IMG/VR virus record: IMGVR_UViG_3300022917_000008
Span: 64,001-128,000 of that record
Length of the DNA stretch: 64,000 nt
Origin: a virus
Taxonomy: Duplodnaviria; Caudoviricetes
Direction: 5' to 3' (one strand)
The translations under genes and the position numbers were made by a program. A model generated the notes under the pieces. That model had not been told where the DNA came from. It was given only the letters and a program-made list of their open reading frames with translations, and did no database searches. Each line of letters opens with the position of its first letter. The first letter of the stretch is position 1. This document shows, in pieces, positions 5,889-24,137 of this stretch.

Positions 5889-5907
5889 ATGATTGGTTTG
5901 TTTGGTG

Positions 5908-6141
5908 TTATAGTACTATGTTTAACCTGGTATACTTACTTGTACCACTACTGTATACATACAGTAATAACAGTCCTCCTTCATCAGTGCCATACACATA
6001 ATGAGCACTAGGGTTAACCTTCATCACAGCTTCATACACCTCCTTCCTTAGTACATCTACTGGTATGATATTAACCTCAGTATCTCTGCTGTTAGGTAGT
6101 TGTTGTGCCTCCTCTACCTTTATTTCTCTTACTTCTTTCAT
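5908..6141 (-). CDS. hypothetical protein
   Basis: ORF with A-rich initiation context. Confidence 0.6.
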   Translation of the reverse strand: MKEVREIKVEEAQQLPNSRDTEVNIIPVDVLRKEVYEAVMKVNPSAHYVYGTDEGGLLLLYVYSSGTSKYTRLNIVL

Positions 6142-7170: not shown

Positions 7171-7887
7171 TTAGTCAACACTGCGGTATATGACTTTGCC
7201 TCTCTTACCATTCTTAGTGAGATAGTAATCCCTACTATAGATTAGTACATTGAGTGGTACTTTTACCTCATATACACCCAATGGTGTATCACCTATCTTA
7301 GTCTTCTTGATCACAGGTCTGTCAGTTGATATGAACTCAGAGTTCAATATCTTGATGTATGCTATGTTTCTTCCATCATACATCTGCAGCTCCAATAAAC
7401 TGACTGGCCTCTCATTATAGAAGTATTTTATGGGCTTATCAGTGTCAAATACATATTTCACACTGTCTTTGCTGTAGTCGTACTGTAGTGTGTGTACATG
7501 GTCTGATACACATGTTATTACACTTGGATTGTTATTCCATTCATCTCTCAGATCATAGTATTCTGATGCAGGCTCTGAGAATACACCTGAGGTATATGCA
7601 TCATCCAGCTCTTTCCTCCTGTCCTTCCTGTGTGTGACAATGGCAGCCTTTAATAGCCTCACAGAATCTGCCTTAGTTGTCTCATGGATATAACCATTAG
7701 CACAACACGTGAAGTAATGCACCATTGGTCTATGCCAATGACAAGGACATAAACAAGGTATTGAGTCTTTGTATACTGTGTCCTTCTGTCCAAATACTAT
7801 CATTGGACATATTAGTAGCAATAGTAGTATGTATCTCATAAGTAATGATTTGATTGTTATGTCCCTCTGCACTCTATTGTAGTTCAC
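7171..7887 (-). CDS. exported hypothetical protein (true start probably MRYILL, near 7839)
   Basis: Signal-peptide-like segment followed by a Cys/His cluster. Confidence 0.65.
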   Translation of the reverse strand: MNYNRVQRDITIKSLLMRYILLLLLICPMIVFGQKDTVYKDSIPCLCPCHWHRPMVHYFTCCANGYIHETTKADSVRLLKAAIVTHRKDRRKELDDAYTSGVFSEPASEYYDLRDEWNNNPSVITCVSDHVHTLQYDYSKDSVKYVFDTDKPIKYFYNERPVSLLELQMYDGRNIAYIKILNSEFISTDRPVIKKTKIGDTPLGVYEVKVPLNVLIYSRDYYLTKNGKRGKVIYRSVD

Positions 7888-7910: not shown

Positions 7911-8115
7911 TTTCTACATTGCACTGTAAGGATGTGAACCCAAGTTATATTACAATAGCCTACCCTTGGGTAGCTGATTAAAATTGTCTGACTCTAGGCA
8001 CTCTTATAAGTAGGCATTAACCAGACAGTACACCTCAGTTGAATGTAGAATGTTAATCAGGAGGATTGGCTATACCTCTAGGTTGTGGTGCATTACAAAG
8101 AGGAGGATGTAGAAA
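7911..8115. ncRNA. putative structured ncRNA
   Basis: ORF-free; four nested stems TTTCTACAT/ATGTAGAAA, ATAGCC/GGCTAT, CTGATTAA/TTAATCAG, TGTCTG/CAGACA. Confidence 0.45.
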
Positions 8116-11658: not shown

Positions 11659-12077
11659 TGGAGCATTTACATGAACCTGAGATAGACCCTCTGGATATAG
11701 ATAGGCCTGGATACTATACACCCAGGATAGAAGAATTATTCTTCAGTTGTGAAGTAGATGTGTATGAAGGAGACAAGTGGATGTCCTATATCATAGATGA
11801 GGAGTTTGATCTGAACAACATATCAAGCTTTAGTCTAAGGATGAAATACTTACAGGCTAAGGATGTGATGGAACTAGGGTTTGCAAGAGTAATGCCTAAC
11901 ACTCCTATGTATCAAAGAGGGTCTTACACTATTACTACATACAGGCTACTTGATCCAACTTATAGCAGAGTGAAGATCAGTCAGAATGGTGTGACAGTGT
12001 TTGAGGGTCATGTGAAGAACAAGTCAGAGTTAAGAAGGATTCTGATACTTAATGAAATAAATTTTGCTGATAACTAA
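11658..12077 (+). CDS. hypothetical protein
   Basis: TAATG coupling. Confidence 0.75.
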   Translation: MEHLHEPEIDPLDIDRPGYYTPRIEELFFSCEVDVYEGDKWMSYIIDEEFDLNNISSFSLRMKYLQAKDVMELGFARVMPNTPMYQRGSYTITTYRLLDPTYSRVKISQNGVTVFEGHVKNKSELRRILILNEINFADN

Positions 12078-12093
12078 GGAAGGAGTATATTTG
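12063..12093 (+). promoter_or_regulatory. Bacteroidetes promoter of tRNA operon 1
   Basis: TTTG-N19-TATATTTG; leader ATG starts 4 nt after the final G. Confidence 0.8.
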
Positions 12094-12096
12094 GGT

Positions 12097-12192
12097 ATGC
12101 AACAACATGCAATAGATATGGCCAATAGAGAGATCAGGGTGAAGAAAAGCTCTGAGGGTATGCTATTTGCTAGACTAGATTACACAAGTTAA
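12097..12192 (+). CDS. attenuator leader peptide 1 (MQQHAIDMANREIRVKKSSEGMLFARLDYTS)
   Basis: Codons 5-17 match the downstream tRNA set; 12149-12160 is complementary to the terminator 5' arm. Confidence 0.8.
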   Translation: MQQHAIDMANREIRVKKSSEGMLFARLDYTS

Positions 12193-12214
12193 CAGGTTCC
12201 TAAGCAATAAGACT

Positions 12215-12255
12215 ACCCCCAGAGCAGCCAAAAGCTACCTGGGGGTTTTTGTTTT
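12215..12255 (+). terminator. intrinsic terminator (attenuator 1)
   Basis: ACCCCCAG...CTGGGGGT followed by TTTTGTTTT, immediately before the tRNA cluster. Confidence 0.85.
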
Positions 12256-12256
12256 A

Positions 12257-12330
12257 TCCCCTTGTAGCAAACAGGTGTAGGCAAGAGTCTTTTAAACTCT
12301 GGGGTTTGGTTCAATTCCAAACAGGGGGAC
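12257..12330 (+). tRNA. tRNA-Lys(TTT)
   Basis: AGAGT-CTTTTAA-ACTCT; T-arm GGTTCAATTCC. Confidence 0.85.
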
Positions 12331-12332
12331 AA

Positions 12333-12405
12333 GCTGTTATAACTCAACAGGTAGAGTAATTGATTCTTAATCAATGAGTTCTAGGTTCGAGCCCTAGTAG
12401 CAGCA
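12333..12405 (+). tRNA. tRNA-Lys(CTT)
   Basis: ATTGA-TTCTTAA-TCAAT; GGTTCGAGCCC. Confidence 0.88.
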
Positions 12406-12406
12406 C

Positions 12407-12580
12407 ATGATAACAATACACACAGGAGCAGGTGGTATGGAGCTATTCCAAGAAATGATGGATAGGGAACTTGGATATGAAAGAGTATATCTTAGGAAGG
12501 TGCCAAGAATACTAAAGTCTAAGTTCAAAAAGAGTCCCTACACAGGGAAGTACTATAAAAGGATAAAGATGCCCCTTTAG
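12407..12580 (+). CDS. small basic hypothetical protein (57 aa); stop lies inside tRNA-Val
   Basis: Manual translation MITIHTGAGGMELF...KMPL*. Confidence 0.5.
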   Translation: MITIHTGAGGMELFQEMMDRELGYERVYLRKVPRILKSKFKKSPYTGKYYKRIKMPL

Positions 12581-12642
12581 CTCATTGGTAGAGCTTGTCC
12601 CTTACATGGATAGAGTAGGGAGTTCGATTCTCTCAGGGGGTA
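12571..12642 (+). tRNA. tRNA-Val(TAC)
   Basis: TGTCC-CTTACAT-GGATA; AGTTCGATTCT. Confidence 0.88.
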
Positions 12643-12647
12643 CTAAT

Positions 12648-12719
12648 GCACCTGTAGCTCAATGGTAGAGCTGCAAACTTCTAATTTGCAGGCTGGAAGT
12701 TCGACCCTTCCCAGGTGTT
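12648..12719 (+). tRNA. tRNA-Arg(TCT)
   Basis: GCAAA-CTTCTAA-TTTGC. Confidence 0.88.
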
Positions 12720-12725
12720 CTATAA

Positions 12726-12798
12726 GGCCAGTTAGCTCAGTGATAGTAGCAAGAAGCTGTTAACTTCTAGGTCCTAGGTTTGATCCCTAGACTGGCCT
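12726..12798 (+). tRNA. tRNA-Asn(GTT)
   Basis: AGAAG-CTGTTAA-CTTCT; T-loop TTTGATC. Confidence 0.88.
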
Positions 12799-12840
12799 CA
12801 GATATTTTGTTCTTTGGAATAAACTTCATACATTTGTATT

Positions 12841-13230
12841 GTGACACAAAGAGAACAAACAATAGCAACCAAGTTCCTATATTTGATAGGAGTAACTAAG
12901 GGGCAGATATTTGCCAAGTGTAAGAACTGGCAGTCAGCTAGAACAACCATAAGGAGACATGCTGTGAAGATATATGAGACCTCAGGGAAGCCAAAAGCAT
13001 GTAACTCTTGTGGATATGATAAGCATTATGAAATATGTCACATAAGGGCTGTGTCTGACTTTCCAGATGAAGCCTTAGTTGAAGAGATAAATAGTATAGA
13101 CAACCTGATGGCACTATGTCCAAACTGTCATTGGGAGTTTGACAATTTAGATTGTGGGGTGGATGTAACGGTAACACAAGACTCTCATAAGGTCTTAATT
13201 GACAGTTCGATTCTGTCCCCCGCAACGTAA
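12841..13230 (+). CDS. HNH endonuclease with its own promoter (12806-12836)
   Basis: CNSCG...EICHI...NLMALCPNCH; C-terminus reads through tRNA-Met. Confidence 0.85.
   Translation: MTQREQTIATKFLYLIGVTKGQIFAKCKNWQSARTTIRRHAVKIYETSGKPKACNSCGYDKHYEICHIRAVSDFPDEALVEEINSIDNLMALCPNCHWEFDNLDCGVDVTVTQDSHKVLIDSSILSPAT
13153..13225 (+). tRNA. tRNA-Met(CAT)
   Basis: AGACT-CTCATAA-GGTCT; GACAG-TTCGATT-CTGTC. Confidence 0.82.
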
Positions 13231-13327
13231 CACAACAAAACTTGGAGCACAAGTATCTACTCATAAAAGGAGTGCTTAGGGCATAGGCTGGTGACTTCAG
13301 TAATAACCCTTCCAGTGAGAGTAGATT

Positions 13328-13399
13328 AGTACTATCGTCTAGTGGCTAGGACATTGCACTTTCACTGCAATAAAGGGGGATCGAAACCCCCTAGTACTA
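13328..13399 (+). tRNA. tRNA-Glu(TTC)
   Basis: TTGCA-CTTTCAC-TGCAA; D-arm GTCTAGTGGCTAGGAC. Confidence 0.88.
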
Positions 13400-13406
13400 C
13401 AACCAT

Positions 13407-13483
13407 AGCCTCAGGGGCTGCTAGAAGTGGCCACTCCCCTGTCACGGGAGAATATCAGGAGGGTTTGAATCCCTTTGGGGCTG
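13407..13483 (+). tRNA. tRNA-Asp(GTC)
   Basis: CTCCC-CTGTCAC-GGGAG. Confidence 0.8.
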
Positions 13484-13484
13484 C

Positions 13485-13616
13485 ATGAAAGAGACATTCA
13501 ACAGGATATGGAATGATCCAGTGGGATCAGATATCATAGCTGGACTGATAGTGTTAGTAATAGCATTTGTACTATCCAGAGTATTCAACATCAAGATTCC
13601 TCATTTTGACCCTTAG
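13485..13616 (+). CDS. small single-TM peptide (43 aa)
   Basis: MKETFNRIWNDPVGSDIIAGLIVLVIAFVLSRVF...; stop lies inside the next tRNA. Confidence 0.5.
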   Translation: MKETFNRIWNDPVGSDIIAGLIVLVIAFVLSRVFNIKIPHFDP

Positions 13617-13679
13617 CTCAATAGGTAGAGCAGGATACTCATAATATCAAGGTAGTGGGTTCAAATCCCTCAGGGTCAA
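13607..13679 (+). tRNA. tRNA(CAT), probably Ile2 (lysidine type, reads ATA)
   Basis: GATA-CTCATAA-TATC; body resembles bacterial tRNA-Ile2 (CCTTAGCTCA...AGAGCAGG..ACTCATAAT). Confidence 0.75.
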
Positions 13680-13691
13680 CAAACTAACATT

Positions 13692-14471
13692 ATGTTCTAC
13701 GTATTGCAAGAGAATGTTTTCAAGGAGTCCCATCATGAACTAATAATGAACTGGATGGAAAAGGCTGGAATAGAGCATGAAGTAATCAAGTTCAGACCTT
13801 TCACAGACACATTAGAAGTAGAGACTAAGAGGAAGGACATATGGTTATGGGGATCAGTTAGTGCATCCAGGATAGCTGAGAAGTACGGATGGTCTCCTGG
13901 TAGTATGTACAATGACAATCATGACCTTGAGGTCTACTCCAAGTACTATGGTGAGAACATGCTAAACCATGATGGTGTGGTAATGAGAGTTACTGATCCA
14001 CTCCCAGATGGTTTAGTCTCATTCTTTGCTAGACCAACTAAGGATACTAAGGCATTCACAGGACAGGTCTTTGATGCTAAGGAATGGAATGAATGGGTAG
14101 ATGATATGACTAGGGCAGGCTTAGTTAGAAGCTTCAGTAAGGATACTAAGGTACTACTAGCGCCTCTCAAGTTGATACAGCAAGAGGTAAGGTGCTGGGT
14201 GATAGGAGGTAAAGTAGTGTCTGCAAGTAGATATAAGATGCATGACAGGATACAATACCAGAACTATGATGATGAGACTTTCTACACTGACTTTGCCCAG
14301 AAGATGGCAGACATTTATTGTCCAGCAGAAGCCTTTGTGATAGATGTATGTTTGGCTGAGGGAGAACTTAAAGTGGTAGAAATCAACTGCATAAACTGTT
14401 CTGGTTTCTATCATATGAACGTAGATAAAGTAATGAGTGCTCTTGAGACTCATTTTGGCAATGTCACATAG
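13692..14471 (+). CDS. ATP-grasp domain protein (DUF4343/R2K-like)
   Basis: FARP..DTKAFTG, EVRCWVIGGKVVSASRY, FVIDV...VVEINCINCSGFY. Confidence 0.8.
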   Translation: MFYVLQENVFKESHHELIMNWMEKAGIEHEVIKFRPFTDTLEVETKRKDIWLWGSVSASRIAEKYGWSPGSMYNDNHDLEVYSKYYGENMLNHDGVVMRVTDPLPDGLVSFFARPTKDTKAFTGQVFDAKEWNEWVDDMTRAGLVRSFSKDTKVLLAPLKLIQQEVRCWVIGGKVVSASRYKMHDRIQYQNYDDETFYTDFAQKMADIYCPAEAFVIDVCLAEGELKVVEINCINCSGFYHMNVDKVMSALETHFGNVT

Positions 14472-14533
14472 CTCAATGGTTGAGCACCAATCTGATAAGT
14501 TGGGGGATGTAGGTTCAAATCCTACTGTGACAA
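14462..14533 (+). tRNA. tRNA-Ile(GAT)
   Basis: CCAAT-CTGATAA-GTTGG. Confidence 0.9.
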
Positions 14534-14535
14534 CT

Positions 14536-14793
14536 ATGAAACAAGAAATACTAGATGCAGGATGGAAGTACTATCAGAGCCCATATCTAGCTGAGAAGTA
14601 CAGAGAGGGGGTATATGAAAAGGGCAACTACTGGATGAAGATAAATGAAGATAGCAGAGACATAACAGTGATTGCACAAGACCCAGTAAAGCTACTAGAT
14701 GAGGGATGGGTATACCCAGAGAATTTTAAACTCTGTGTTCCTTATAAAGGGCCCAAAACACTAGAAGGCTTGGATAAACTACTAGATTTATGA
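14536..14793 (+). CDS. hypothetical protein
   Basis: Start reassigned to MKQEIL, after the tRNA. Confidence 0.65.
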   Translation: MKQEILDAGWKYYQSPYLAEKYREGVYEKGNYWMKINEDSRDITVIAQDPVKLLDEGWVYPENFKLCVPYKGPKTLEGLDKLLDL

Positions 14794-15074
14794 TGCTCCA
14801 ATTGAACCCTATACTACCAGTTTTCGTTCCTAGGTTCAACATAGAGGGATTTGCCTTTCTTGTAACTAGGGAATCACAAGAGCATTATACAATCTTCACT
14901 GTGGCCTTAGACAATGGTGAGATATGGGACCTAAGTAACAGGGAGGTAAGGTTTTGTGTTAATCACACTATGGACAGATCATTTATTAACAAGGGGGACA
15001 CAATATTCAAAGATGCTTTTAGACCACATAACAGGGCTGTTCCTGATGATAAAACACAGGAGAAGGGTAGTTAG
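14790..15074 (+). CDS. hypothetical protein
   Basis: ATGA overlap; MLQLNP...GEIW resembles a small phage family. Confidence 0.65.
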   Translation: MMLQLNPILPVFVPRFNIEGFAFLVTRESQEHYTIFTVALDNGEIWDLSNREVRFCVNHTMDRSFINKGDTIFKDAFRPHNRAVPDDKTQEKGS

Positions 15075-15176
15075 GTTCAAGGTACCCAGGGCTAAGGTAA
15101 TGCAGGTATACAGGTTCTCTAGGCCCAATGCCAAGGCTTTGTACTTAGGGCTGGGCAGGTTCATCTTTATCAACTA

Positions 15177-15246
15177 GGGCTAGATGCCAATGGCAGGTCA
15201 ACTCCCTTGCAAGGAGATTGTTTGGGTTCGACTCCCACTATGTCCA
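15177..15246 (+). tRNA. tRNA-Ala(TGC), atypical
   Basis: CTCC-CTTGCAA-GGAG; G3:U70 pair; irregular acceptor and D arms. Confidence 0.7.
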
Positions 15247-15302
15247 CTAATTTAATCCCAAGTATGGAGTTAATTTTGTATCTTTATTTGTAAAGATATA
15301 CT

Positions 15303-16673
15303 ATGGCTACTGCAACAATAAATTGGGTACCCACCAATGGAAGTGGGTATGAAATATGGTATGGTAAGCTAACTATGGTTGGCACTACTTTCTTACCTCC
15401 TTCTACAGGCTGGATACAAGCTCCTGGTTCACCTTTTGATTCTACTCTGGGTACAGCTACTATCAATGGACTGGATGACAACACTCAGTACAGGATAGTA
15501 ACTAGGGCTGACTGTACATCTGCTGACAGTCCATGGATTGATAAGAGTGTGGACAAGATAGTCTGCCCTACTTTCACTGTAGTAGCTAATCCAGTAGGTG
15601 GAACAGATGTGGGAGCTTCAATCACAGCAAACATTAGCCTGTCTAATATTGTTGAATTTGGATTGATAGTCTCCTCAGTTACTCTCACTGTCAAGAAGAC
15701 AAGTGATTCTTCAGTAGCAGCAACTAAGGTATTCTCTGCTCCATATACAGACACTACTCTCACTAACACATTCACATCTTTACTTACTAATACCAGTTAC
15801 ACAGTATATCTGACTTTGCATGATAGTGTGAATTCAGTGGATGTTACATGCACAAATCATGCTGTAACAACACTTGCATTCATACCACCTCCTACATGTA
15901 CAGCTCCAACATTCTCTATTAGCAATATCACACAATCTTCTGCCTTAGTTACAATAACATCAACTCTTCTAACTGGGGACACATATGATATTTCTATCAA
16001 TGGTGGATCATCCTATGTCTATACAGGACTAACTGGGGCAACATTCAGTCTTACAGGACTAACCCAGGGCACTAATTATGTAGTTGTGGTAAGGAGGAAC
16101 TGTGCAGCTGGTAATCAAGGCATTAGCACAAGTCAGACATTCACTACTGCAAGTAACATCATACCAGCAACTATACAAGCTAATAGGAGTAATGGACAGA
16201 TCAATACTGGTGGTGGACCAAGGTGGCAGTATTCAATGGTAATAACATTCCAACAACCTACACCATTCCCCATTACTATTTACTTTGGTCAGTCTGTGAT
16301 TGTAGGACAAGTAGGTGGAGGACAGTGTAGGTACAGTCAGGGATATGATATGTATACACCTCCAACTACAGGACCAATAGCTTGTTGTTTTGGTGGATGT
16401 ACATATCCAGCTCCAAACTCTAACAAGCCTTGGAGGATAGATGTACCTGCAGGTGTGGTCACATATACAGTACCATTTGACACTGCATTCAGAGATGGGG
16501 TCACTCATGCTGACTTGCAACAAGTGTGGTGTGTACAGGAGCCTGTGGGCACAGGTGCAGTGGATTACATTAGTGATTTGTGGATGAAGATTACTGCTCC
16601 TTCAGGATATTTCTGTAACTTCACTCCTGTACCTGGAGCACATACATCAGGGATAACAATACACAATCTATAA
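15303..16673 (+). CDS. FN3-repeat, Cys/Thr-rich virion decoration or fibre-like protein
   Basis: GLDDNTQYRIV, SLLTNTSYTV, GLTQGTNYVV FN3 signatures; N-terminus is paralogous to 42583..43809. Confidence 0.8.
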   Translation: MATATINWVPTNGSGYEIWYGKLTMVGTTFLPPSTGWIQAPGSPFDSTLGTATINGLDDNTQYRIVTRADCTSADSPWIDKSVDKIVCPTFTVVANPVGGTDVGASITANISLSNIVEFGLIVSSVTLTVKKTSDSSVAATKVFSAPYTDTTLTNTFTSLLTNTSYTVYLTLHDSVNSVDVTCTNHAVTTLAFIPPPTCTAPTFSISNITQSSALVTITSTLLTGDTYDISINGGSSYVYTGLTGATFSLTGLTQGTNYVVVVRRNCAAGNQGISTSQTFTTASNIIPATIQANRSNGQINTGGGPRWQYSMVITFQQPTPFPITIYFGQSVIVGQVGGGQCRYSQGYDMYTPPTTGPIACCFGGCTYPAPNSNKPWRIDVPAGVVTYTVPFDTAFRDGVTHADLQQVWCVQEPVGTGAVDYISDLWMKITAPSGYFCNFTPVPGAHTSGITIHNL

Positions 16674-16674
16674 T

Positions 16675-17652
16675 ATGAGTTTGATTAAGGATTTCTGCAA
16701 ATGGTTCAATGGGGAAGAGGATGTTGACAATACCCTCTATGTGATTACAGTGGTATTCAATCCTTTCAATTTCAAGTCCAGGTACAAGTTGTACAGGGAG
16801 TTCAGGGAGTACATGTCTACACAGAAGAATGTGAGGCTTCTAACAGTAGAAGTAGCACTAGGGGATAGGCCATTTAGAGTAACTAGGGCCAATAACTCTT
16901 GGAATGTGCAACTAAGGACTGAGGAAGAGATGTGGCACAAGGAGGCAGCTATTAATAGAGGGTTCAAACATCTATTACACTTGGTACCTAATGCCAAGTA
17001 TGTTGGATGGTTTGATTCTGATGTTAGGTTTGCTAATCCAGACTGGGTTAAGGAGACTATTCATGCCCTACACAGGTACAAGATAGTCCAGCCCTTCTCA
17101 CAAGTTGTATACATGGATGCAAAGTATGAAGAGTTGTGGCATACACCAAGTGCACTGAAACACTACCATAACAAATTAGGATACTATCAATATCCCCAAG
17201 TACCTCCTGGGTATCTATGTGGAGGACATCCAGGGTTAGCTTGGGCTGCAAGAGTAGATACTTTCAGGAAACTAGGAGGACTAATGGACTTCTGTATAGC
17301 AGGATCAGCAGACACACACATGCTGAATGCACTACTGGGAGATGTCAACATATTCTACAAACCTGGTATGACACAGGTGTTCAGGACTGAGCTTAAGAAG
17401 TGGCAGGACAAAGCAGATGAGCATGTTAAACAAAATATAGGCTACGTCAATGGAATCTGCTATCATTACTGGCATGGGAAGAGTGAGAAAAGGGGATATG
17501 AGAAGAGGTGGGACATAATGAACTTTCATCAATTTGACCCTTCTACTGACATTGTGAGGGGTCATAATGGACTATGGAAGTGGGCTGGAAACAAGCCCCA
17601 GTTAGTCTATGATCTAAGGAAATCAATGTCAGAAAGGAATGAAGATGAGTAA
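16675..17652 (+). CDS. glycosyltransferase-like protein (GT-A fold)
   Basis: WHKEAAINRG...YVGWFDSDVRF (DxD motif)...HYWHG. Confidence 0.7.
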   Translation: MSLIKDFCKWFNGEEDVDNTLYVITVVFNPFNFKSRYKLYREFREYMSTQKNVRLLTVEVALGDRPFRVTRANNSWNVQLRTEEEMWHKEAAINRGFKHLLHLVPNAKYVGWFDSDVRFANPDWVKETIHALHRYKIVQPFSQVVYMDAKYEELWHTPSALKHYHNKLGYYQYPQVPPGYLCGGHPGLAWAARVDTFRKLGGLMDFCIAGSADTHMLNALLGDVNIFYKPGMTQVFRTELKKWQDKADEHVKQNIGYVNGICYHYWHGKSEKRGYEKRWDIMNFHQFDPSTDIVRGHNGLWKWAGNKPQLVYDLRKSMSERNEDE

Positions 17653-18184
17653 TACACTGATAACACAGGACAGGTTAACAACTTTCTCCTTGCTAAGGCC
17701 CCTAGTTCCTAAAGAAGGATTAGTAGCTGAGGTAGGAGTATATAAGGGAGGATCACTTAAAGTACTAGCTAAACTGTTTGATGACACAGCAGTACTAGGA
17801 TTTGATACATTTGAGGGGTTACCTAAGGAGCAATGGATTGAGAGTGAGATACATGAGCCTGGTGACTTTCATGATACTACAATGAAGGATGTGCAGGAAT
17901 TCTTGCATGATTGTCCAAACGTGGTACTGATCAAGGGACTATTCCCAACATCAGCTAAGGGAATGGATGATTACAAGTTCAGGCTAGTACATTTGGATAC
18001 AGACTTTTATCTGGGTACAAAGTTATCACTAGAGTGGTTTTGGCCAAGGATGGAAAGTGGAGGTATTATAGTGTTTGATGACTATAAGTGGCCCAATTGT
18101 CCAGGTGTAGAACAAGTACTGAAGGAGTTTGGAGAACCTGTGCACCAAGCAGCAGATTATCAGGCATACATAAAGAAACCATGA
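17639..18184 (+). CDS. TylF/MycF/NovP-like O-methyltransferase
   Basis: AEVGVYKGGS, GFDTFEGLP, VHLDTDFY, GGIIVFDDY. Confidence 0.88.
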   Translation: MKMSNTLITQDRLTTFSLLRPLVPKEGLVAEVGVYKGGSLKVLAKLFDDTAVLGFDTFEGLPKEQWIESEIHEPGDFHDTTMKDVQEFLHDCPNVVLIKGLFPTSAKGMDDYKFRLVHLDTDFYLGTKLSLEWFWPRMESGGIIVFDDYKWPNCPGVEQVLKEFGEPVHQAADYQAYIKKP

Positions 18185-18912
18185 CATACATACAGAACAA
18201 GGACGGACTTATAGGAGACTTCCTGGGATCAGTACCTGCAATGCAGGAGCTAGGTAGAAGGGACAAGCTAGTGGTACAGATTCATCCAGAGGCATTGAAG
18301 TTAGTACCTCTTATATACAACCCAGATGGGATTGTATTTACTGAGATAGCAACTGGGCAAGTGTCACATACAATCTACTCAGCTACTGCATTCCAGATTG
18401 CAACAGCAAAGAATCTGTACATGTCACAAGCATTCTTTGAGCAGGTGGGATTGGAGATTCCCCTAGTTGCTCCTAAAGCTGATTTAAGGCTCATAGAGGT
18501 CCATACTCCAACTTATGACTACATCATATCACCTTTTGCTAGAAGCCTACCAAGCAGCCAGAAATTGCCTAAGAGTGAATGGAAGCAGTTGGTGGATAGC
18601 ATGCCTAACAAGAAGTTCTGTGTAATTGGTACAACAGTGCATGATGATCCTGAGTTCATAGTAGGACCTAATGTGGAGACTAGATTTGATATGGACTTCA
18701 ACTATGTAGGTAGCCTGCTAAGGAATGCAACTAAGGGACTCATCAGTGTTGTGACAGGCACTTCTCATTTAGCATTTCACCTAGGAGTGAAGAACTGGAT
18801 ACTTAATAATCAGGACTTTGCATGGGGTACTAATCCAGATGGAGTATCAATCAGGGATCATATTCCAGCTCTATTTGGAGAAAAGATTAGAGAATATTTG
18901 GAAAATAGCTAG
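18181..18912 (+). CDS. glycosyltransferase family 9-like protein (GT-B fold)
   Basis: GLIGDFLGSVPAM...ISVVTGTSHLAFHLG; start reassigned to ATG 18181 (ATGA overlap). Confidence 0.75.
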   Translation: MTYIQNKDGLIGDFLGSVPAMQELGRRDKLVVQIHPEALKLVPLIYNPDGIVFTEIATGQVSHTIYSATAFQIATAKNLYMSQAFFEQVGLEIPLVAPKADLRLIEVHTPTYDYIISPFARSLPSSQKLPKSEWKQLVDSMPNKKFCVIGTTVHDDPEFIVGPNVETRFDMDFNYVGSLLRNATKGLISVVTGTSHLAFHLGVKNWILNNQDFAWGTNPDGVSIRDHIPALFGEKIREYLENS

Positions 18913-18928
18913 GACTGCACTATATTTG
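18897..18928 (+). promoter_or_regulatory. Bacteroidetes promoter
   Basis: TTTG-N20-TATATTTG upstream of the tRNA-like RNAs and suppressor. Confidence 0.8.
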
Positions 18929-18936
18929 TATTACAT

Positions 18937-19008
18937 GCGGGGGATACTTAGAGAGCCCTGTTCTCTTATAACCCTTTAATACAGCCATAAAAGCTGTCCC
19001 CCGTTCCA
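18937..19008 (+). ncRNA. tRNA-like RNA A (acceptor stem, T-like arm, CCA)
   Basis: GCGGGGG/CCCCCGT-T-CCA; ACAGC-N7-GCTGT; no canonical anticodon arm. Confidence 0.6.
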
Positions 19009-19009
19009 T

Positions 19010-19059
19010 GGAGAGGTGCTTCTAAGCTTTAGGTTGGTGTGATCCCAACTCTCTCTGCA
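19010..19059 (+). ncRNA. mini tRNA-like RNA B
   Basis: GGAGAG/CTCTCT acceptor stacked on GTTGG-TGTGATC-CCAAC. Confidence 0.5.
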
Positions 19060-19062
19060 AAT

Positions 19063-19115
19063 GGGTAGAAATAGCATAGAGCTGTCAGTTGGGTGTAAGC
19101 CCCACCTACCCACCA
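19063..19115 (+). ncRNA. mini tRNA-like RNA C
   Basis: GGGTAG/CTACCC-ACCA; TGGG-TGTAAGC-CCCA T-like arm. Confidence 0.6.
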
Positions 19116-19116
19116 T

Positions 19117-19189
19117 GCCTTCCTAGCTCAATTGATAGAGCGTCCATCTCTAAAATGGAAAGATGTGGGTTTGAGTCCCACGGATCGCA
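19117..19189 (+). tRNA. amber suppressor tRNA (anticodon CTA)
   Basis: TCCAT-CT-CTA-AA-ATGGA; canonical D-arm; two acceptor-stem mismatches. Confidence 0.85.
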
Positions 19190-19204
19190 CTTAAACTAAA
19201 CACA

Positions 19205-19567
19205 ATGGCTTAGATTACATCAACATCCAGATTGATAACTATAGTAAGGAGAGACCTTAGTCATGGTTATCAGACAGCACAGACAGGTCATGCAATAGCA
19301 GAATGGGCTTATAACAATCCCAGGACCTTTAGAAGGTGGAGAAAAGAAAGTGGGTACTTAATATGTCTTTCAGTAAGAAACCTAGCAGAGCTAGAGGCAT
19401 TCAACAGAAAGTTATATGACAACAAGATAAAGTACACAGCATTTTATGAACCTGACATTGGAGAGTTTACAGCAATAGCAATAACTCCTTCAACTAAGGC
19501 AGACCAGTTAACTAAGCATCTACAGCTAGCCAATGTAAAGGCTGGCACTAAGGACAAACACAAATGA
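19205..19567 (+). CDS. peptidyl-tRNA hydrolase 2-like protein with an in-frame TAG at codon 3
   Basis: IVRRDLS.G.QTAQTGHA...LICLSV...FYEPDIG..TAIA Pth2 motifs; ATG GCT TAG ATT... is in frame with the ORF called from TTG 19232. Confidence 0.8.
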
Positions 19568-19635
19568 AGCAATTATCCTCATATTATCTCCTAAGTTCCC
19601 TGTTGAATAGACAGGCTGAGATAGTATTGAGTTAA
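19564..19635 (+). CDS. attenuator leader peptide 2 (MKQLSSYYLLSSLLNRQAEIVLS)
   Basis: Codons 4-14 are all Leu/Ser/Tyr; ATGA overlap with the Pth2-like stop; contains the antiterminator strand. Confidence 0.82.
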   Translation: MKQLSSYYLLSSLLNRQAEIVLS

Positions 19636-19660
19636 GTCATTCTTCGGAGACCCTTATACT

Positions 19661-19696
19661 AGCCCTCAGCCTAAAAACTGGGGGCTTTTTGTTTTT
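19661..19696 (+). terminator. intrinsic terminator (attenuator 2)
   Basis: AGCCCTCAG/CTGGGGGCT followed by TTTTGTTTTT. Confidence 0.85.
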
Positions 19697-19698
19697 AT

Positions 19699-19774
19699 GG
19701 CAGTGTGGGCAAAATGGTAAAGTCGCTTCACTTAGGATGAAGAGGTTCTGAGAGTTCGAGTCTCTCCACTGTCA
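19699..19774 (+). tRNA. tRNA-Leu(TAG), short variable arm
   Basis: CTTCA-CTTAGGA-TGAAG. Confidence 0.85.
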
Positions 19775-19777
19775 CAT

Positions 19778-19857
19778 ACCTCCATGGTGAAATTGGTAGA
19801 CGCGACAGACTTAAAATCTGTTCCTTCGGGGTGCCAGTTCAAATCTGGCTGGGGGTA
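19778..19857 (+). tRNA. tRNA-Leu(TAA)
   Basis: ACAGA-CTTAAAA-TCTGT; Leu-type D-arm. Confidence 0.92.
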
Positions 19858-19859
19858 CT

Positions 19860-20258
19860 ATGGATAATAAAACCTACTATAGCTCCATAGCGGAGCTAAA
19901 AGTAATGGCTGATCTAACAGCTAAGCACTATCATATATTCAATCAAGTATCTGGTAAGGCACCATTTGACTTGGTTGCATACAGGGATGGAGAGCTAAGG
20001 AGAGTCAGTGTCAAGAGTTGCAACAAAGACCCTAGGAAGGACGGGGGATTTGTGATAGAAGTTGGCAGGGTAAGAGCCAATAAAACAGAGAATAAGATAT
20101 ACAAGTTTGATCAGTCTGAATGTGATCTGCTGGCCATCTACATAGTCAAAGAAGATAGAATAGTCTATGTGGAGTCAACAGTAGCGCATGATAAAAGGCA
20201 GATCATCATACAAGGAAGGTCCCAGTTGACAGAGGTACATGATCTTGAAAATCACTAG
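19860..20258 (+). CDS. PD-(D/E)XK endonuclease (group I intron-associated type)
   Basis: AELKV...PFDLV...RVSVKS...CDLLAIY. Confidence 0.8.
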   Translation: MDNKTYYSSIAELKVMADLTAKHYHIFNQVSGKAPFDLVAYRDGELRRVSVKSCNKDPRKDGGFVIEVGRVRANKTENKIYKFDQSECDLLAIYIVKEDRIVYVESTVAHDKRQIIIQGRSQLTEVHDLENH

Positions 20259-20299
20259 GTCCCTAAAAAGACGTGGGGGTTGAACTCCCCCACCTTCCT
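20214..20299 (+). tRNA. tRNA-Ser(TGA), divergent
   Basis: GGAAGGT/ACCTTCC acceptor; TGAT-CTTGAAA-ATCA; long variable arm. Confidence 0.75.
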
Positions 20300-20307
20300 C
20301 AAACTAA

Positions 20308-20392
20308 GGAGAGTTGGCTGAGAGGCTTAAAGCACCACATTGCTAACGTGGGGGCTGTAATAGGTCCACTAGTTCGAATCTAGTACTCTCCT
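20308..20392 (+). tRNA. tRNA-Ser(GCT)
   Basis: GGAGAGT/ACTCTCC; loop TTGCTAA; long variable arm. Confidence 0.9.
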
Positions 20393-20398
20393 CTTAAT

Positions 20399-20482
20399 GC
20401 CTACCATGGTAGATTGGATACTACCTGTGGACTGTAAATCCACTGCCCTTGGGCTTATTCAGTTCGATTCTGAAGGGAGGCA
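20399..20482 (+). tRNA. tRNA-Tyr(GTA)
   Basis: GTGGA-CTGTAAA-TCCAC; long variable arm. Confidence 0.82.
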
Positions 20483-20504
20483 CATTTTGTTGTATATTTG
20501 TATA

Positions 20505-20765
20505 ATGGAATACAACATCACACCTCAGGCCCTAGTTGATAGGGGATTCAAGTACCATGCACCAGGCATAAGTGGAGCAGACATGTGGCAGGGAATGCCA
20601 TGGTGGATTCATAAGGAGAAGGATATAGGTCTATGCCTTAGAGGGACTACTTCTACAGCAAAGCCTAGAGGACTAAGGTTAGCTGGACATTTCAATACAG
20701 AGGTGAGAACAATAAAGCAGTTAGAAGTTTTGATGGAAATATTTGGTTTGAATCCAAATAGTTAG
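20505..20765 (+). CDS. hypothetical protein (probably leaderless)
   Basis: ATG 20505 just after TATATTTG; the N-terminus in the ORF track overlaps tRNA-Tyr. Confidence 0.65.
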   Translation: MEYNITPQALVDRGFKYHAPGISGADMWQGMPWWIHKEKDIGLCLRGTTSTAKPRGLRLAGHFNTEVRTIKQLEVLMEIFGLNPNS

Positions 20766-20773
20766 TATATTTG
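20742..20773 (+). promoter_or_regulatory. Bacteroidetes promoter of tRNA operon 3
   Basis: TTTG-N20-TATATTTG; same spacing to the leader ATG as in operon 1. Confidence 0.8.
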
Positions 20774-20776
20774 ATT

Positions 20777-20848
20777 ATGAAACAGACTTGGCAACATACC
20801 TTTACGACACAAACTCCACTAAAAGGAGAAGGGTATCTGTTGTCATAA
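20777..20848 (+). CDS. attenuator leader peptide 3 (MKQTWQHTFTTQTPLKGEGYLLS)
   Basis: Codons 3-14 are all Gln/Thr/Trp/His/Phe/Pro; contains the antiterminator strand. Confidence 0.85.
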   Translation: MKQTWQHTFTTQTPLKGEGYLLS

Positions 20849-20883
20849 CATTCCAAGAAAGATTGTAATAATGAAACACTGAT

Positions 20884-20912
20884 ACCCTCCATTCCTGGAG
20901 GGTTTTTTATTT
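20884..20912 (+). terminator. intrinsic terminator (attenuator 3)
   Basis: ACCCTCCA-TTCC-TGGAGGGT followed by TTTTTATTTT. Confidence 0.88.
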
Positions 20913-20984
20913 TGGGTGGTTGACCAATGGTAGGTCCCTACATTTGGGATGTAGAATTTGCAGGTTCGAGTCCTGTTCACCCAA
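20913..20984 (+). tRNA. tRNA-Pro(TGG)
   Basis: CTACA-TTTGGGA-TGTAG. Confidence 0.85.
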
Positions 20985-20988
20985 CTAT

Positions 20989-21061
20989 GGTGCACAAGCT
21001 AATCTGGTGAAAGCACTAGACTGAAAATCTAGGGAGCTTGGATCAAAACCAAGGTGTACCG
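20989..21061 (+). tRNA. tRNA-Phe(GAA)
   Basis: CTAGA-CTGAAAA-TCTAG. Confidence 0.85.
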
Positions 21062-21062
21062 C

Positions 21063-21494
21063 ATGAAACAATCAAATAGAAAGGATGCTAGAAGGGTCAT
21101 AGACTGTGAAAACTGTGGTAACCCAACAAAGAATGATAGATTCTGTAGTCTATCTTGCTCAGCAGAACATGTATCAAAGGAGCAGTATAGAAAGTTCTTG
21201 AGCAGCCCTGAGGACTTCCAGGGTGAGGAGTACTCTCCTAAGTCCTTTAAGAAGTTTATACTGAAGGAACAGGATTGCAAGTGTAGCATCTGTAGTATAG
21301 ACAATATATGGAATGGTAAGGAACTGGTGTTTGTACTAGATCACATAGATGGAAATCCAGGCAACAATACTAGGGACAACCTTAGGCTAGTATGTCCCAA
21401 TTGTGATAGCCAGTTGGACACATTTAAAAGTGGAAATAAGGGAAGTGGTAGGTACTACAGAACACAAAGAAGATTAGAGGGCAAATCCTCATAA
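21063..21494 (+). CDS. HNH endonuclease
   Basis: CSIC...LDHIDGNPGNNTRDNLRLVCPNCDSQ; N-terminal Zn finger. Confidence 0.9.
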   Translation: MKQSNRKDARRVIDCENCGNPTKNDRFCSLSCSAEHVSKEQYRKFLSSPEDFQGEEYSPKSFKKFILKEQDCKCSICSIDNIWNGKELVFVLDHIDGNPGNNTRDNLRLVCPNCDSQLDTFKSGNKGSGRYYRTQRRLEGKSS

Positions 21495-21567
21495 GGCCGG
21501 TTAGTTTATATGACTAAAATACGTCTCTTGTAAAGATGAGTACTGAGTTTGATGCTCAGACTGGCCT
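21495..21567 (+). tRNA. tRNA-Thr(TGT)
   Basis: CGTCT-CTTGTAA-AGATG. Confidence 0.8.
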
Positions 21568-21573
21568 CTTAAT

Positions 21574-21644
21574 AGCCCTTTAGCACATTGGTAGTGCGTG
21601 GAGCTTTGGACTCCATGAAGTTAGTTCGATCCTAGCAGGGGCTT
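21574..21644 (+). tRNA. tRNA-Gln(TTG)
   Basis: TGGAG-CTTTGGA-CTCCA. Confidence 0.87.
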
Positions 21645-21651
21645 CTTATAT

Positions 21652-21724
21652 GGTGCTTGTAGCATAAAGGTAATGCACTGCTCTGTGAAAGCAGTGAAGA
21701 GGGATCAATACCCTCCTTGTACCC
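21652..21724 (+). tRNA. tRNA-His(GTG)
   Basis: CTGCT-CTGTGAA-AGCAG; G-1 present. Confidence 0.8.
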
Positions 21725-21729
21725 CAAAC

Positions 21730-21798
21730 ACGTGCTAGGCTATGGTAGCCACCCAGTCTCCAAAACTGAAGGAAGTAGTTCGATTCTACTAGTGCGTG
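21730..21798 (+). tRNA. tRNA-Trp(CCA)
   Basis: CAGT-CTCCAAA-ACTG; AGTAG-TTCGATT-CTACT. Confidence 0.8.
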
Positions 21799-21849
21799 CA
21801 ATAGAATAGTTTGATAAGCAAACCTATAAAGTTTGCATGTCAAACTATT

Positions 21850-21881
21850 TTTGTTTATATGAACTAAGACCCATATATTTG
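21850..21881 (+). promoter_or_regulatory. Bacteroidetes promoter
   Basis: TTTG-N20-TATATTTG. Confidence 0.7.
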
Positions 21882-21898
21882 TATTGAAGACCAACAAT

Positions 21899-22246
21899 AT
21901 GAGTGTAGACTTAATCAAGGACAAGATAACAGTAAGTGATAAGACTGAGGCACTCAGGCTGCACCTACTTATTAAGTCCTTCCAGACAGGTCTAAACCTC
22001 TCAGAGTCAGACATTAACAGTCTGGTTGAGCTTAGCATAGTAGGGTATAACCCAGAGTTCTTCAAGGCTTGTGTAGACAAGGGCTATTACAAGAGTGAGC
22101 AGACTGTAAGGAATGCCATAGCCAAGATGACTAACATGGGGATACTGTACTACAGGAAGAGAGGGGAAAGGAAGATCAATGAGGACTTCCTACCTAAAAC
22201 AAGTTCAGACAAGGTAATGTTTCAATACTTAGTGGGTAACATATGA
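21899..22246 (+). CDS. putative winged-HTH DNA-binding protein
   Basis: SEQTVRNAIAKMTNMGIL HTH-like segment. Confidence 0.55.
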   Translation: MSVDLIKDKITVSDKTEALRLHLLIKSFQTGLNLSESDINSLVELSIVGYNPEFFKACVDKGYYKSEQTVRNAIAKMTNMGILYYRKRGERKINEDFLPKTSSDKVMFQYLVGNI

Positions 22247-22581
22247 TAGTAAGGGCATCTGAAATATATACTGTAACAGCACTAAGGCATGGATTGGACC
22301 AAGAACTTGTTTCCTCAGTTGGTGAGACAGTGTTCAAGTCCTTGATGGAAAAGATGGTAGTACCTCATGACCTAGCTTATGAGTTGGATCATGTGGGGAC
22401 ATTTGCTATTAGACACAAGAAGTTCTTGGGTAAGCATGCAACCCTTTTGAGTAATAACCCTGACCATCCCTTTGTGTCAACATGGAGGCATGTTATAGAC
22501 ATGGTACAGGACTTCAGAAACACTAAGGCACAATTTCAATCTAGGAGGGCAGAATATGACAGAGCCAAAAAACAAGGCTAA
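22243..22581 (+). CDS. HU/IHF-like protein (putative)
   Basis: ELDHVGTFAIR resembles the HU beta-arm motif. Confidence 0.45.
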   Translation: MIVRASEIYTVTALRHGLDQELVSSVGETVFKSLMEKMVVPHDLAYELDHVGTFAIRHKKFLGKHATLLSNNPDHPFVSTWRHVIDMVQDFRNTKAQFQSRRAEYDRAKKQG

Positions 22582-22873
22582 GATCAGCCTTAAGAATATA
22601 GGTAGGTTCTTGCAGGGATACTCCAGGATGTTCTCAGAGACCTTTGGCTTGCTTGAAAAGCACAAACAGGAGCAAGTTATATGGAGATCAGAACAGGCCA
22701 AGGAATGCCTTAAAAATGGCTCCTGCTTGTATTGTGGATGTGACACCCCAGCTAAATTTTATGGAGATGAAGCATGTGAGGACCCTCAAAGGCAATGTTA
22801 CCCTAGTATGATGGATGTACCAACTTGGGAACAGTATAAGGCAGAACATCAAATAACCATTAAAGTAGACTAA
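22556..22873 (+). CDS. Cys-rich hypothetical protein
   Basis: CLKNGSCLYCGC...C...CYP. Confidence 0.7.
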   Translation: MTEPKNKAKISLKNIGRFLQGYSRMFSETFGLLEKHKQEQVIWRSEQAKECLKNGSCLYCGCDTPAKFYGDEACEDPQRQCYPSMMDVPTWEQYKAEHQITIKVD

Positions 22874-23181
22874 TGGGACAAGAAGTAACAATAAGCCCTA
22901 GTAGGATGGACTTGGGCAAGATAGATAACAAACCCAGAAAGTTCTGGTTTGAAGTCAGGAATAACCACCATGCAACTCTTGACTTAGCAGCTTGGGCCTC
23001 TTGTGGCTGTACTACACCAATAGTAGTCCCTAGTAGGGTTGAACCTGGGCAGACAGCACAACTGAGGGTAGAATTTGATCCCACTGGTAAAAGTGGCCTC
23101 CAGGAGAAGGGAGTGGGAGTAACTTATGTTATAGAGGGCCATCAGAAGAACACAGGAGCAACCTTTGTTGCAAACATCTAA
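22873..23181 (+). CDS. DUF1573-like Ig-fold protein
   Basis: ASCGCTTP...VEPGQTAQLRVEFD. Confidence 0.75.
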   Translation: MGQEVTISPSRMDLGKIDNKPRKFWFEVRNNHHATLDLAAWASCGCTTPIVVPSRVEPGQTAQLRVEFDPTGKSGLQEKGVGVTYVIEGHQKNTGATFVANI

Positions 23182-23192
23182 AACAAAATACT

Positions 23193-23492
23193 ATGAGTTT
23201 CCACAATCACACACATGAAGAGGGTCATCTATGTGATGACTGCAAGGCAGAATTGAAAGAGGACATTCACCTTATGATCACTATCCTACACTCTCCAGCA
23301 GGGGAATCTACTAGGGACTTGGCTGATAGCCTACTATACAGCTTCCTTATGGAGCTATATGGGGTATGTGACTGTGAGGACCCTGATGAGGATGATGATG
23401 AACAGTCAGATAATGATAGCCCTGTACAAGGTCCTATAATTGGGAACTTGAGGGAGTTCCTCACAGCTATGGGTACACAGCACCACACCTAA
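23193..23492 (+). CDS. acidic His/Cys-rich hypothetical protein
   Basis: 99-aa ORF. Confidence 0.6.
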   Translation: MSFHNHTHEEGHLCDDCKAELKEDIHLMITILHSPAGESTRDLADSLLYSFLMELYGVCDCEDPDEDDDEQSDNDSPVQGPIIGNLREFLTAMGTQHHT

Positions 23493-23522
23493 TTATCATG
23501 TTGGGGGCCAGTCTAGTCAGGA

Positions 23523-23984
23523 ATGGAAAAGTATTGTCCTAAATGCAAGCAGAAGAAAGACACATCCTTCTTCAGACCTAACAAATCTAGGAAGGATGGT
23601 CTTCAACCTTGCTGCATAGATTGTGATAAGGAATATCAAAGGCAATGGTACCAGAGCAACAAGGAAAAGGTAAAAGCTAAGTCCTTAGTAAGCAATAAGG
23701 TAAATAGAGAAAGAGTACAAGAGATTCTACTAAGGGAACTAGAAGGTAAGAAATGTGAACACTGTGGGGAAGGTGATATACTAGTACTAGAGTTTGACCA
23801 CCTAAGAGACAAGCAGTTCACCATAGGCAATACACAGTGGGAGAGCGAAGACAAAATAATAGAGGAGGTAGGAAAGTGCCAAGTACTATGTGCCAACTGC
23901 CATAGAAGGAAAACTCATGAAGATATGAACACATACAAATGGAGGTATAGCCAAGGGGTAAGGCAGGAGTCTGCAAAACTCTGA
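23523..23984 (+). CDS. HNH endonuclease
   Basis: CPKC...CIDC; CEHCG...LEFDHL...CQVLCANCH; stop lies inside tRNA-Cys. Confidence 0.88.
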   Translation: MEKYCPKCKQKKDTSFFRPNKSRKDGLQPCCIDCDKEYQRQWYQSNKEKVKAKSLVSNKVNRERVQEILLRELEGKKCEHCGEGDILVLEFDHLRDKQFTIGNTQWESEDKIIEEVGKCQVLCANCHRRKTHEDMNTYKWRYSQGVRQESAKL

Positions 23985-24014
23985 GCGAAGGTTCAATTCC
24001 TTCTACCTCTTCCA
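23941..24014 (+). tRNA. tRNA-Cys(GCA)
   Basis: GGAGT-CTGCAAA-ACTCT; encoded CCA. Confidence 0.88.
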
Positions 24015-24047
24015 GAAATCCAACAAACCTTAAATAAACCAACACTA

Positions 24048-24120
24048 GCATCAGTAGTATAAAGGCTGATTATACTGCACTTCCAATGCAGGGATGAGGT
24101 TTCGATTACCTCCTGGTGCT
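24048..24120 (+). tRNA. tRNA-Gly(TCC)
   Basis: CTGCA-CTTCCAA-TGCAG. Confidence 0.85.
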
Positions 24121-24137
24121 CAAAAAGAAACCAACTA

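Follow-up and report, generated by a model that had tools for sequence, protein, structure and literature searches.

The DNA analysed here (the window) is a stretch of 64,000 nucleotides, bases 64001-128000 of the 155,657-bp IMG/VR virus record IMGVR_UViG_3300022917_000008, which belongs to an uncultured Bacteroidota phage. Its TerL and portal proteins return phage family matches, the named relatives nearest by TerL (~29% identity) being an Azobacteroides phage and crAss-like phages, and its tRNAs resemble those of Cellulophaga and Bacteroides phages. The whole genome carries 24 tRNA genes, a count that takes in an Ala(UGC) gene (15178-15246) and a Phe(GAA) gene (20989-21061) called by Rfam alone; all 24 lie inside the window, where the + strand carries 23, spread over 12258-24121. 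Eleven of these form a block (12258-15246) that adjoins a short region of dense organization, the features of which are as follows:

12063-12066, + strand: TTTG, -33 element of a Bacteroidota-type promoter, lying within the last codons of the upstream gene for a 139-aa protein
12086-12093, + strand: TATATTTG, -7 element, with a 19-nt spacer from TTTG
12097-12192, + strand: leader ORF of 31 codons plus TAA (12190-12192)
12109-12147, + strand: putative regulatory codon block, codons 5-17 of the leader ORF (A I D M A N R E I R V K K)
12112-12139, + strand: segment 1, candidate anti-antiterminator strand, pairing with segment 2 when ribosome-free
12149-12160, + strand: segment 2, core of the antiterminator 5' strand, with weaker pairing on to ~12176
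12214-12225, + strand: segment 3, terminator 5' arm, common to antiterminator and terminator
12215-12246, + strand: intrinsic terminator hairpin, about -18.5 kcal/mol
12247-12255, + strand: terminator T-run, ending 2 nt before the tRNA-Lys(UUU) gene at 12258
12258-12406, + strand: tRNA-Lys(UUU) and tRNA-Lys(CUU)
12571-12799, + strand: tRNA-Val(UAC), tRNA-Arg(UCU) and tRNA-Asn(GUU)
13153-13680, + strand: tRNA-Met(CAU), tRNA-Glu(UUC), tRNA-Asp(GUC) and a second CAU tRNA at 13607
14462-14534, + strand: tRNA-Ile(GAU)
15178-15246, + strand: tRNA-Ala(UGC), weakly scoring (29.8 bits, anticodon loop CUUGCAA)

The block thus reads Lys, Lys, Val, Arg, Asn, Met, Glu, Asp, CAU (Met or Ile2), Ile, Ala. As the T-run abuts the first tRNA-Lys gene and leaves no space for a separate promoter, transcription of the first tRNAs must cross the terminator. 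Two further ORFs are interspersed with the tRNA genes: a 57-codon ORF without a family match (12407-12580), lying between the Lys and Val tRNAs with its stop codon within tRNA-Val, and, within 12806-13230, an HNH endonuclease ORF that passes through tRNA-Met (13153-13226). The latter has a promoter-like site of its own at 12806-12836, the -7 box of which is followed by a GTG at a distance of 4 nt, and this site could render transcription of the distal tRNAs independent of the attenuator proposed below.

Through protein-cluster look-ups and one metagenome scan we obtained ten related, distinct metagenomic loci, anchored on Pth2 and the upstream 139-aa gene (46-70% anchor identity), while a search for close IMG/VR relatives with the 139-aa gene, the ATP-grasp gene, TerL and alignment A2 returned only a fragment of the same phage. 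Four of the ten contigs (L009, L012, L015, L016) stop 150-240 nt past the anchor gene, either within the leader and first tRNA or immediately beyond them, and it would seem that assemblies break at the tRNA array. Counterparts of the weakly scoring Ala(UGC) gene occupy the same site in L003, L011, L004, L013 and L014, and the second CAU tRNA is possibly Ile2, its D-arm being like that of the Ile(UAU) tRNAs of L004 and L013.

The TTTG-N19-TATATTTG arrangement corresponds to the Bacteroidota sigma-A consensus (-33 TTTG / -7 TAnnTTTG; PMC6847099), with both elements present and a spacer in the required 19-21 nt range. This promoter pattern was seen 11 times in the window against 1.9 expected, 9 times on the + strand, and the + strand copies examined adjoin ORF starts, just upstream of them. 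The TTTG position is kept in the 10 relatives, where TTTG also codes for the end of the 139-aa gene, and a TAnnTTT[G/A] box is seen in the window and in 9/10 relatives, L015 having only TAAATTGT, which is off consensus. An AAGGAG at 12080-12085 might be read as a Shine-Dalgarno motif; we rejected this reading, as the motif is not kept in most relatives and Bacteroidota mRNAs are described as being without SD sequences (PMC6847099).

The initial annotation had placed the ATG at 12097 at about the expected transcription start, implying a leaderless mRNA. The promoter and ATG coordinates hold, but the leaderless part is borderline. In the published Bacteroidota geometry the -7 box occupies -12 to -5 and transcription begins 4-5 nt beyond its G (PMC6847099, PMC9723704), from which +1 is predicted at 12098-12099, 1-2 nt beyond A12097 of the leader ATG. 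The spacing from box to ATG is 3 nt here and again in module 3 (see below), L009 and L015; it is 5 nt in L013, L014 and L017, and 15-18 nt in the four relatives L003, L004, L011 and L012. In two leaders, B and C, of Cellulophaga phage phi38:1, also treated below, the ATG lies 4 nt after the -7 box, which is exactly the published start-site distance; both would accordingly be predicted to be leaderless. Because the unusual 3-nt spacing that it requires is recurrent, we regard a leaderless start as plausible, if borderline. Were the start at 12098-12099, translation would have to begin at Met8 (12118) or rely on read-in transcripts; read-in transcription from the upstream operon into the leader is possible.

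The mirroring of the downstream tRNAs by codons 5-17 of the leader ORF, as originally quoted, is borne out at the same coordinates: each codon of the block (13/13) specifies one of the nine amino acids carried by the 11 downstream tRNAs, with none of the nine missing (9/9). Among 725 small ORFs of the genome only one, the leader itself, has such a 13-codon in-set run, and none of 38,447 proteome 13-mers is both entirely in-set and inclusive of all nine amino acids. The same annotation had stressed that the match extends to isoacceptors (AAG/AAA, ATA/ATC, AGR). This is true as an observation, but it is indistinguishable from the codon usage of the phage, in which AGR makes up 97% of Arg codons, ATA 45% of Ile codons and CpG codons ~1%. 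Given so extreme a usage, the isoacceptor detail of leader 1 is uninformative and adds nothing beyond the amino-acid match, and it is on the amino-acid level that the significance of the codon match rests. Coding CpG is strongly avoided genome-wide, with CGN accounting for 3% of Arg codons and ACG, GCG, CCG and TCG each for <=1% of their own box. We also observed post hoc that the order of the block codons (12109-12147) is roughly the reverse of that of the tRNA genes (12258-15246; Spearman -0.78, permutation p = 0.0012). Relatives show this tendency less strongly, and in phi38:1 leader C the run His-Gln-Glu-Pro is the exact reverse of its Pro, Glu, Gln and His genes.

One alternative would be an ordinary small phage gene followed by a constitutive terminator of the upstream operon, with the codon match arising by chance. 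Phage genomes are indeed rich in small ORFs and terminators, and as 49% of proteome residues belong to the nine-amino-acid set the composition odds for module 1 alone are only ~1e-4. Against this stand the coverage of nine amino acids in just 13 codons, unequalled in the proteome, and several lines of evidence presented below, namely the shuffling of the block among relatives with its composition kept, conservation of the RNA across two reading frames, covariation of the antiterminator, sister modules with odds of ~1e-8 each and recurrence of the design in phi38:1. We accordingly consider a chance match highly improbable.

With respect to the RNA, it had been noted earlier that 12149-12160 pairs at 11 of 12 positions with the terminator 5' arm at 12214-12225. 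We confirm this complementarity, which is interrupted by one A.C mismatch, and find that the duplex of the terminator 5' arm with the ORF has z = -3.7 to -4.0 relative to dinucleotide shuffles. The A.C mismatch is kept in 5/6 aligned phages and would hold the antiterminator weaker than the terminator. We then folded the leader with the footprint of a ribosome masked at different codons. With the ribosome stalled at codon 11 or 14, the 12149-12160 / 12214-12225 helix forms and outlasts the terminator even in the full leader; with the ribosome at the stop codon, segment 1:2 pairing is obtained together with the terminator; and with a stall on the last Lys codon, the antiterminator core is masked or destroyed. 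The last result agrees with a caveat attached to the initial annotation, that a stall on the Lys codons may partly mask the antiterminator. The Val-Lys-Lys end of the block abuts segment 2, and as the Lys codons lie too near to the antiterminator for classical sensing, a response to Lys is doubtful. A response to tRNA-Lys cleavage is consequently the least supported part of the model, and an awkward one given that the Lys tRNAs are the first in the operon.

In the subgroup of this phage the stop codon lies 25 nt past the segment 2 core, such that a terminating ribosome leaves the core uncovered, unlike in the trp attenuator; with the stop this far from segment 2 the model needs segment 1:2 pairing. 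Some form of this pairing is present in the minimum-energy fold of every homologue, with a variable register and weak z-scores (0 to -3.5). In the L003 subgroup the stop codon is situated 4-12 nt past segment 2, in a trp-like position.

These features lend some weight to the possibility that the codon-matched leader is a real sensor with a different mode of action or with inverted polarity, stalls favouring termination, for instance, or translation governing how the tRNA precursor is processed or how stable it is instead of the choice between terminator and antiterminator. Stalls on the Lys codons, which adjoin the antiterminator, favour termination; the stop codon is far from segment 2 in this subgroup and segment 1:2 pairing is poorly conserved; and with the tRNA starting 2 nt after the T-run, RNase P cleavage would free the leader anyway. 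Nevertheless, the antiterminator helix covaries, its location is constant among 11 phages and among six modules from two lineages, and folding with a masked ribosome yields the polarity of a classical attenuator when the stall is placed at codons 5-14. On balance we hold this alternative to be unlikely, while regarding it as a more serious contender than a chance match.

Comparison of the 11 homologues shows what has been kept in this region. The leader ORF is intact, with its ATG in frame with the block, in 11/11 homologues at a length of 23-32 codons, and gaps before the block in alignment A3 are mostly multiples of 3. In the relatives the block comprises 11-15 codons, the order of which is permuted, with every residue still belonging to the nine-amino-acid set. 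Terminators of -15.7 to -20 kcal/mol with a T-run are present in 11/11, and a Lys(UUU) tRNA or Lys-like sequence abuts the terminator wherever the contig continues; a recognised tRNA follows the T-run in six loci, starting 5-8 nt downstream by the T-run end that the scan assigns. The tRNA arrays are syntenic wherever contigs extend. Despite the varying length of the ORF, the stop codon is positioned 22-30 nt before the terminator stem in 11/11. The antiterminator strand CTCTGAGGG is read in two frames, as Ser-Glu-Gly in one subgroup and as Pro-Leu-Arg in the other, indicating that this stretch is conserved as RNA and not as peptide.

When the whole leader is searched for the best partner of the terminator 5' arm, it is found immediately behind the block in 11/11 phages (z = -1.7 to -4.3), and L003-class leaders pair badly with terminators of the class found in the window. 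Both antiterminator strands change together, CTCTAAGGG occurring with CCCCTAGAG and CTCAAGGCTAT with ATAGCCCTTGAG. In counts based on six related sequences (alignment A5), 83% of antiterminator cells are paired versus 26-44% with the partner slid; four pairs are changed on both sides, a number reached by 4/500 shuffles, and the covariation score is 0.233 (1/500). Terminator cells are 91% paired across the six phages. The 11-sequence alignment A3, in which the two terminator classes are two columns out of register, was dropped for pair counts in favour of per-sequence duplexes and A5.

Two sister modules are found in the window:

19564-19697, + strand: sister module 2, comprising a terminator and a leader whose 11-codon block consists of Leu/Ser/Tyr codons; tRNA Leu, Leu, Ser and Tyr follow
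20742-20912, + strand: sister module 3, comprising a promoter, a terminator and a leader whose 12-codon block consists of Gln/Thr/Trp/His/Phe/Pro codons; tRNA Pro, Phe, Thr, Gln, His and Trp follow

The three leaders are thus set against three disjoint sets of tRNAs: 36/36 block codons belong to their own set, and each leader fits its own block only. Simple composition odds are 1e-4, 1.6e-8 and 2.2e-8 for modules 1, 2 and 3, respectively, and the proteome holds no equal to the block of module 2 or 3. An unbiased scan of the window and five related loci for short ORFs with a strong hairpin and a T-run behind them recovered only these modules, each adjoining a tRNA block, with the exception of one marginal match in L014 (-10.3 kcal/mol).

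The surroundings of module 2 offer several further observations. A tRNA with a CUA anticodon (amber suppressor) is encoded at 19117-19190 and is kept in relatives (L003 9831, L004 9885, L011 17679, L013 13425), although translation table 11 reads the genome well. It suggested recoding of TAG, which we rejected since long intact ORFs are already obtained under table 11. Beside it lies the Pth2 gene (19232-19567), upstream of which there is an in-frame ATG at 19205 with a TAG two codons on. An ORF for a PD-(D/E)XK endonuclease (Pfam PF11645; 19860-20258) occupies the site at which relatives have tRNA-Ser(UGA); this phage is therefore without Ser(UGA), and leader 2 still has TCC and TCA codons. 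Elsewhere in the genome, ~8 kb ahead of the window, the minus strand carries an ARAGORN call of a tmRNA-like gene, the tag peptide of which is short (genome positions 55911-56315).

The same design is also encountered in an unrelated phage family. The cultured Cellulophaga phage phi38:1 (KC821614.1; Pervagoviridae, 72 kb), here locus L019, has three modules, listed in the numbering of that locus, to which 29522 is added for positions in the record:

L019 5761-5897: first phi38:1 module
L019 7222-7395: second phi38:1 module
L019 8465-8614: third phi38:1 module

Like those of the window, these modules combine a promoter, a short ORF, a codon block matching a tRNA block, a terminator abutting the first tRNA and an antiterminator strand after the codon block; unlike them, they group the tRNAs in another way, and their leaders are without sequence similarity to those described above. 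The groups are Ala-like/Lys/Ile/Gly/Met/Asp/Thr/Val/Arg, Tyr-like/Ser/Ser/Asn/Trp-like/Phe/Cys-like and Pro/Glu/Gln/His/Leu/Arg, and the phi38:1 leaders track this grouping of the phage's own. The 13-codon block of leader C, for instance, consists of exactly Leu, His, Gln, Glu, Pro and Arg, and the Arg codon is AGA before the block with Arg(UCU) and CGA before the block with Arg(ACG). Leader B has Trp and Cys codons for which no tRNA is annotated, and a search there yielded tRNA-like genes with CCA and GCA anticodon loops. In all, four tRNA-like sequences at L019 ~5898-5972 (UGC, Ala), 7408-7490 (GUA, Tyr), 7775-7845 (CCA, Trp) and 7996-8066 (GCA, Cys) had been missed by the record annotation, ARAGORN and Rfam, the search for them having been prompted by the leader codon blocks. 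The leader ORFs themselves are only partly annotated in KC821614.1. We found no description of the phi38:1 modules in the literature; the paper on the transcriptome of phi38:1 infection makes no mention of a promoter or terminator, and the tRNA genes that it mentions are the host's only (PMC5335546). A search of IMG/VR with the phi38:1 promoter-ATG motif returned phi38:1 and Calle-type genomes only, and a scan of the crAss001 tRNA array recovered no such module.

In light of the above, we propose that the module is probably a ribosome-mediated (leader-peptide) transcription attenuator that gates the operon of 11 phage tRNA genes, and that production of these tRNAs is probably confined to times when ribosomes are slow on the block codons. 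The core of the initial annotation, a translated leader mirroring the tRNAs joined to a terminator/antiterminator switch, is supported by the ten relatives, the covariation, the two sister modules and phi38:1. In the mechanism that we envisage, RNA polymerase would start at the 12063-12093 promoter, or read in from the upstream operon, and transcribe the 31-codon leader. Should any of the sampled charged tRNAs be short, a ribosome translating the leader would stall within about codons 5-14 and leave segment 2 (12149-12160) free, which would then pair with the emerging 12214-12225, such that no terminator forms and polymerase enters the tRNA genes. With smooth reading, the ribosome would instead unwind segment 2 and come to a stop at 12190-12192, in the apical part of the antiterminator; segment 1 would then recapture segment 2, the hairpin 12215-12246 would form, and transcription would stop 2 nt before tRNA-Lys. 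The sequences themselves show the parts, with their significance, conservation and covariation; that the ORF is translated, where transcription starts, and in which direction and by what trigger the switch works is inferred. As the products of the operon are the very tRNAs that decode the block, the circuit would amount to a negative-feedback homeostat for tRNA supply in infection.

A leader attenuator senses charged tRNA, and cannot alone tell low tRNA from low amino acid. The same device could hence report general amino-acid starvation or translation stress; its targets would then be all the genes behind it, ATP-grasp and fn3 among them, and the tRNAs would be carried along as passengers. 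We saw no terminator after the last tRNA, and read-through may reach protein genes. However, the six leaders of the two lineages each track the tRNAs of their own block, down to the split of Arg isoacceptors in phi38:1, and such partitioning would be unexpected for a general stress sensor. For these reasons we assign a sensor of general stress a low probability, somewhat below that of a sensor acting by another route.

Attenuation by leader peptides is textbook knowledge for amino-acid operons, and the proposed tRNA-gating attenuator has clear parallels there. In the multivalent leaders of enterobacteria, such as ilvGMEDA (Ile/Leu/Val) and thr (Thr/Ile), a stall on any regulatory codon results in read-through; as proposed here, a short translated leader with a run of codons for several amino acids is combined with an intrinsic terminator and an antiterminator that overlaps the leader. 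They differ in regulating biosynthetic enzymes, whereas the present module gates tRNAs, and in having long runs of one to three amino acids, whereas here the 13 codons sample nine, most of them just once or twice. The setting too is distinct, being a Bacteroidota phage with a -33/-7 promoter and a possibly leaderless start. With the trp attenuator of E. coli (trpL) the module would share the four-segment logic of 1:2, 2:3 and 3:4 pairing, its 1:2 pairing being a candidate one, together with a terminator 5' arm common to both structures and the importance of the stop position. In trp the ribosome at the stop codon covers segment 2, whereas here the stop falls in the apical part of a long antiterminator. 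T-box riboswitches are comparable in that they couple the state of a tRNA to terminator read-through via an antiterminator; their ligand, however, is uncharged tRNA itself, no translation being involved, and their targets are genes for aminoacyl-tRNA synthetases and amino acids. Searches of the leader with the T-box covariance model and for a specifier loop gave no match at the gathering threshold or at E values up to 10, and an Rfam search returned tRNAs only, with no leader or T-box family. The in-frame 13-codon block in a conserved ORF points to the ribosome, and not a T-box, as the sensor. A full-text literature search for attenuation of phage tRNA genes found nothing; leader-peptide attenuation being known, its control of tRNA genes is apparently new, with no published case found.

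It is tempting to speculate that the three leaders serve as a counter-defence alarm. A host anticodon nuclease or another tRNA-depleting defence, by removing any one of the sampled tRNA species, would cause a stall on the matching codon, and the replacement tRNA block would be turned on in this event alone, in which case the arrays would be inducible repair kits and not constitutive codon-usage aids. We put this forward tentatively, as a possibility less likely than the attenuator itself.

At least two Bacteroidota phage lineages that are unrelated to each other share the design, and with both the cultured representative phi38:1 and its host Cellulophaga baltica in culture the idea is directly testable. 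If correct, it supplies a sequence rule by which the composition of the leader equals the tRNA content of the block behind it, a rule that in phi38:1 pointed to unannotated tRNA-like genes. It would also constitute a natural multi-input sensor of decoding capacity, and would show how phages time the expression of their large tRNA arrays.
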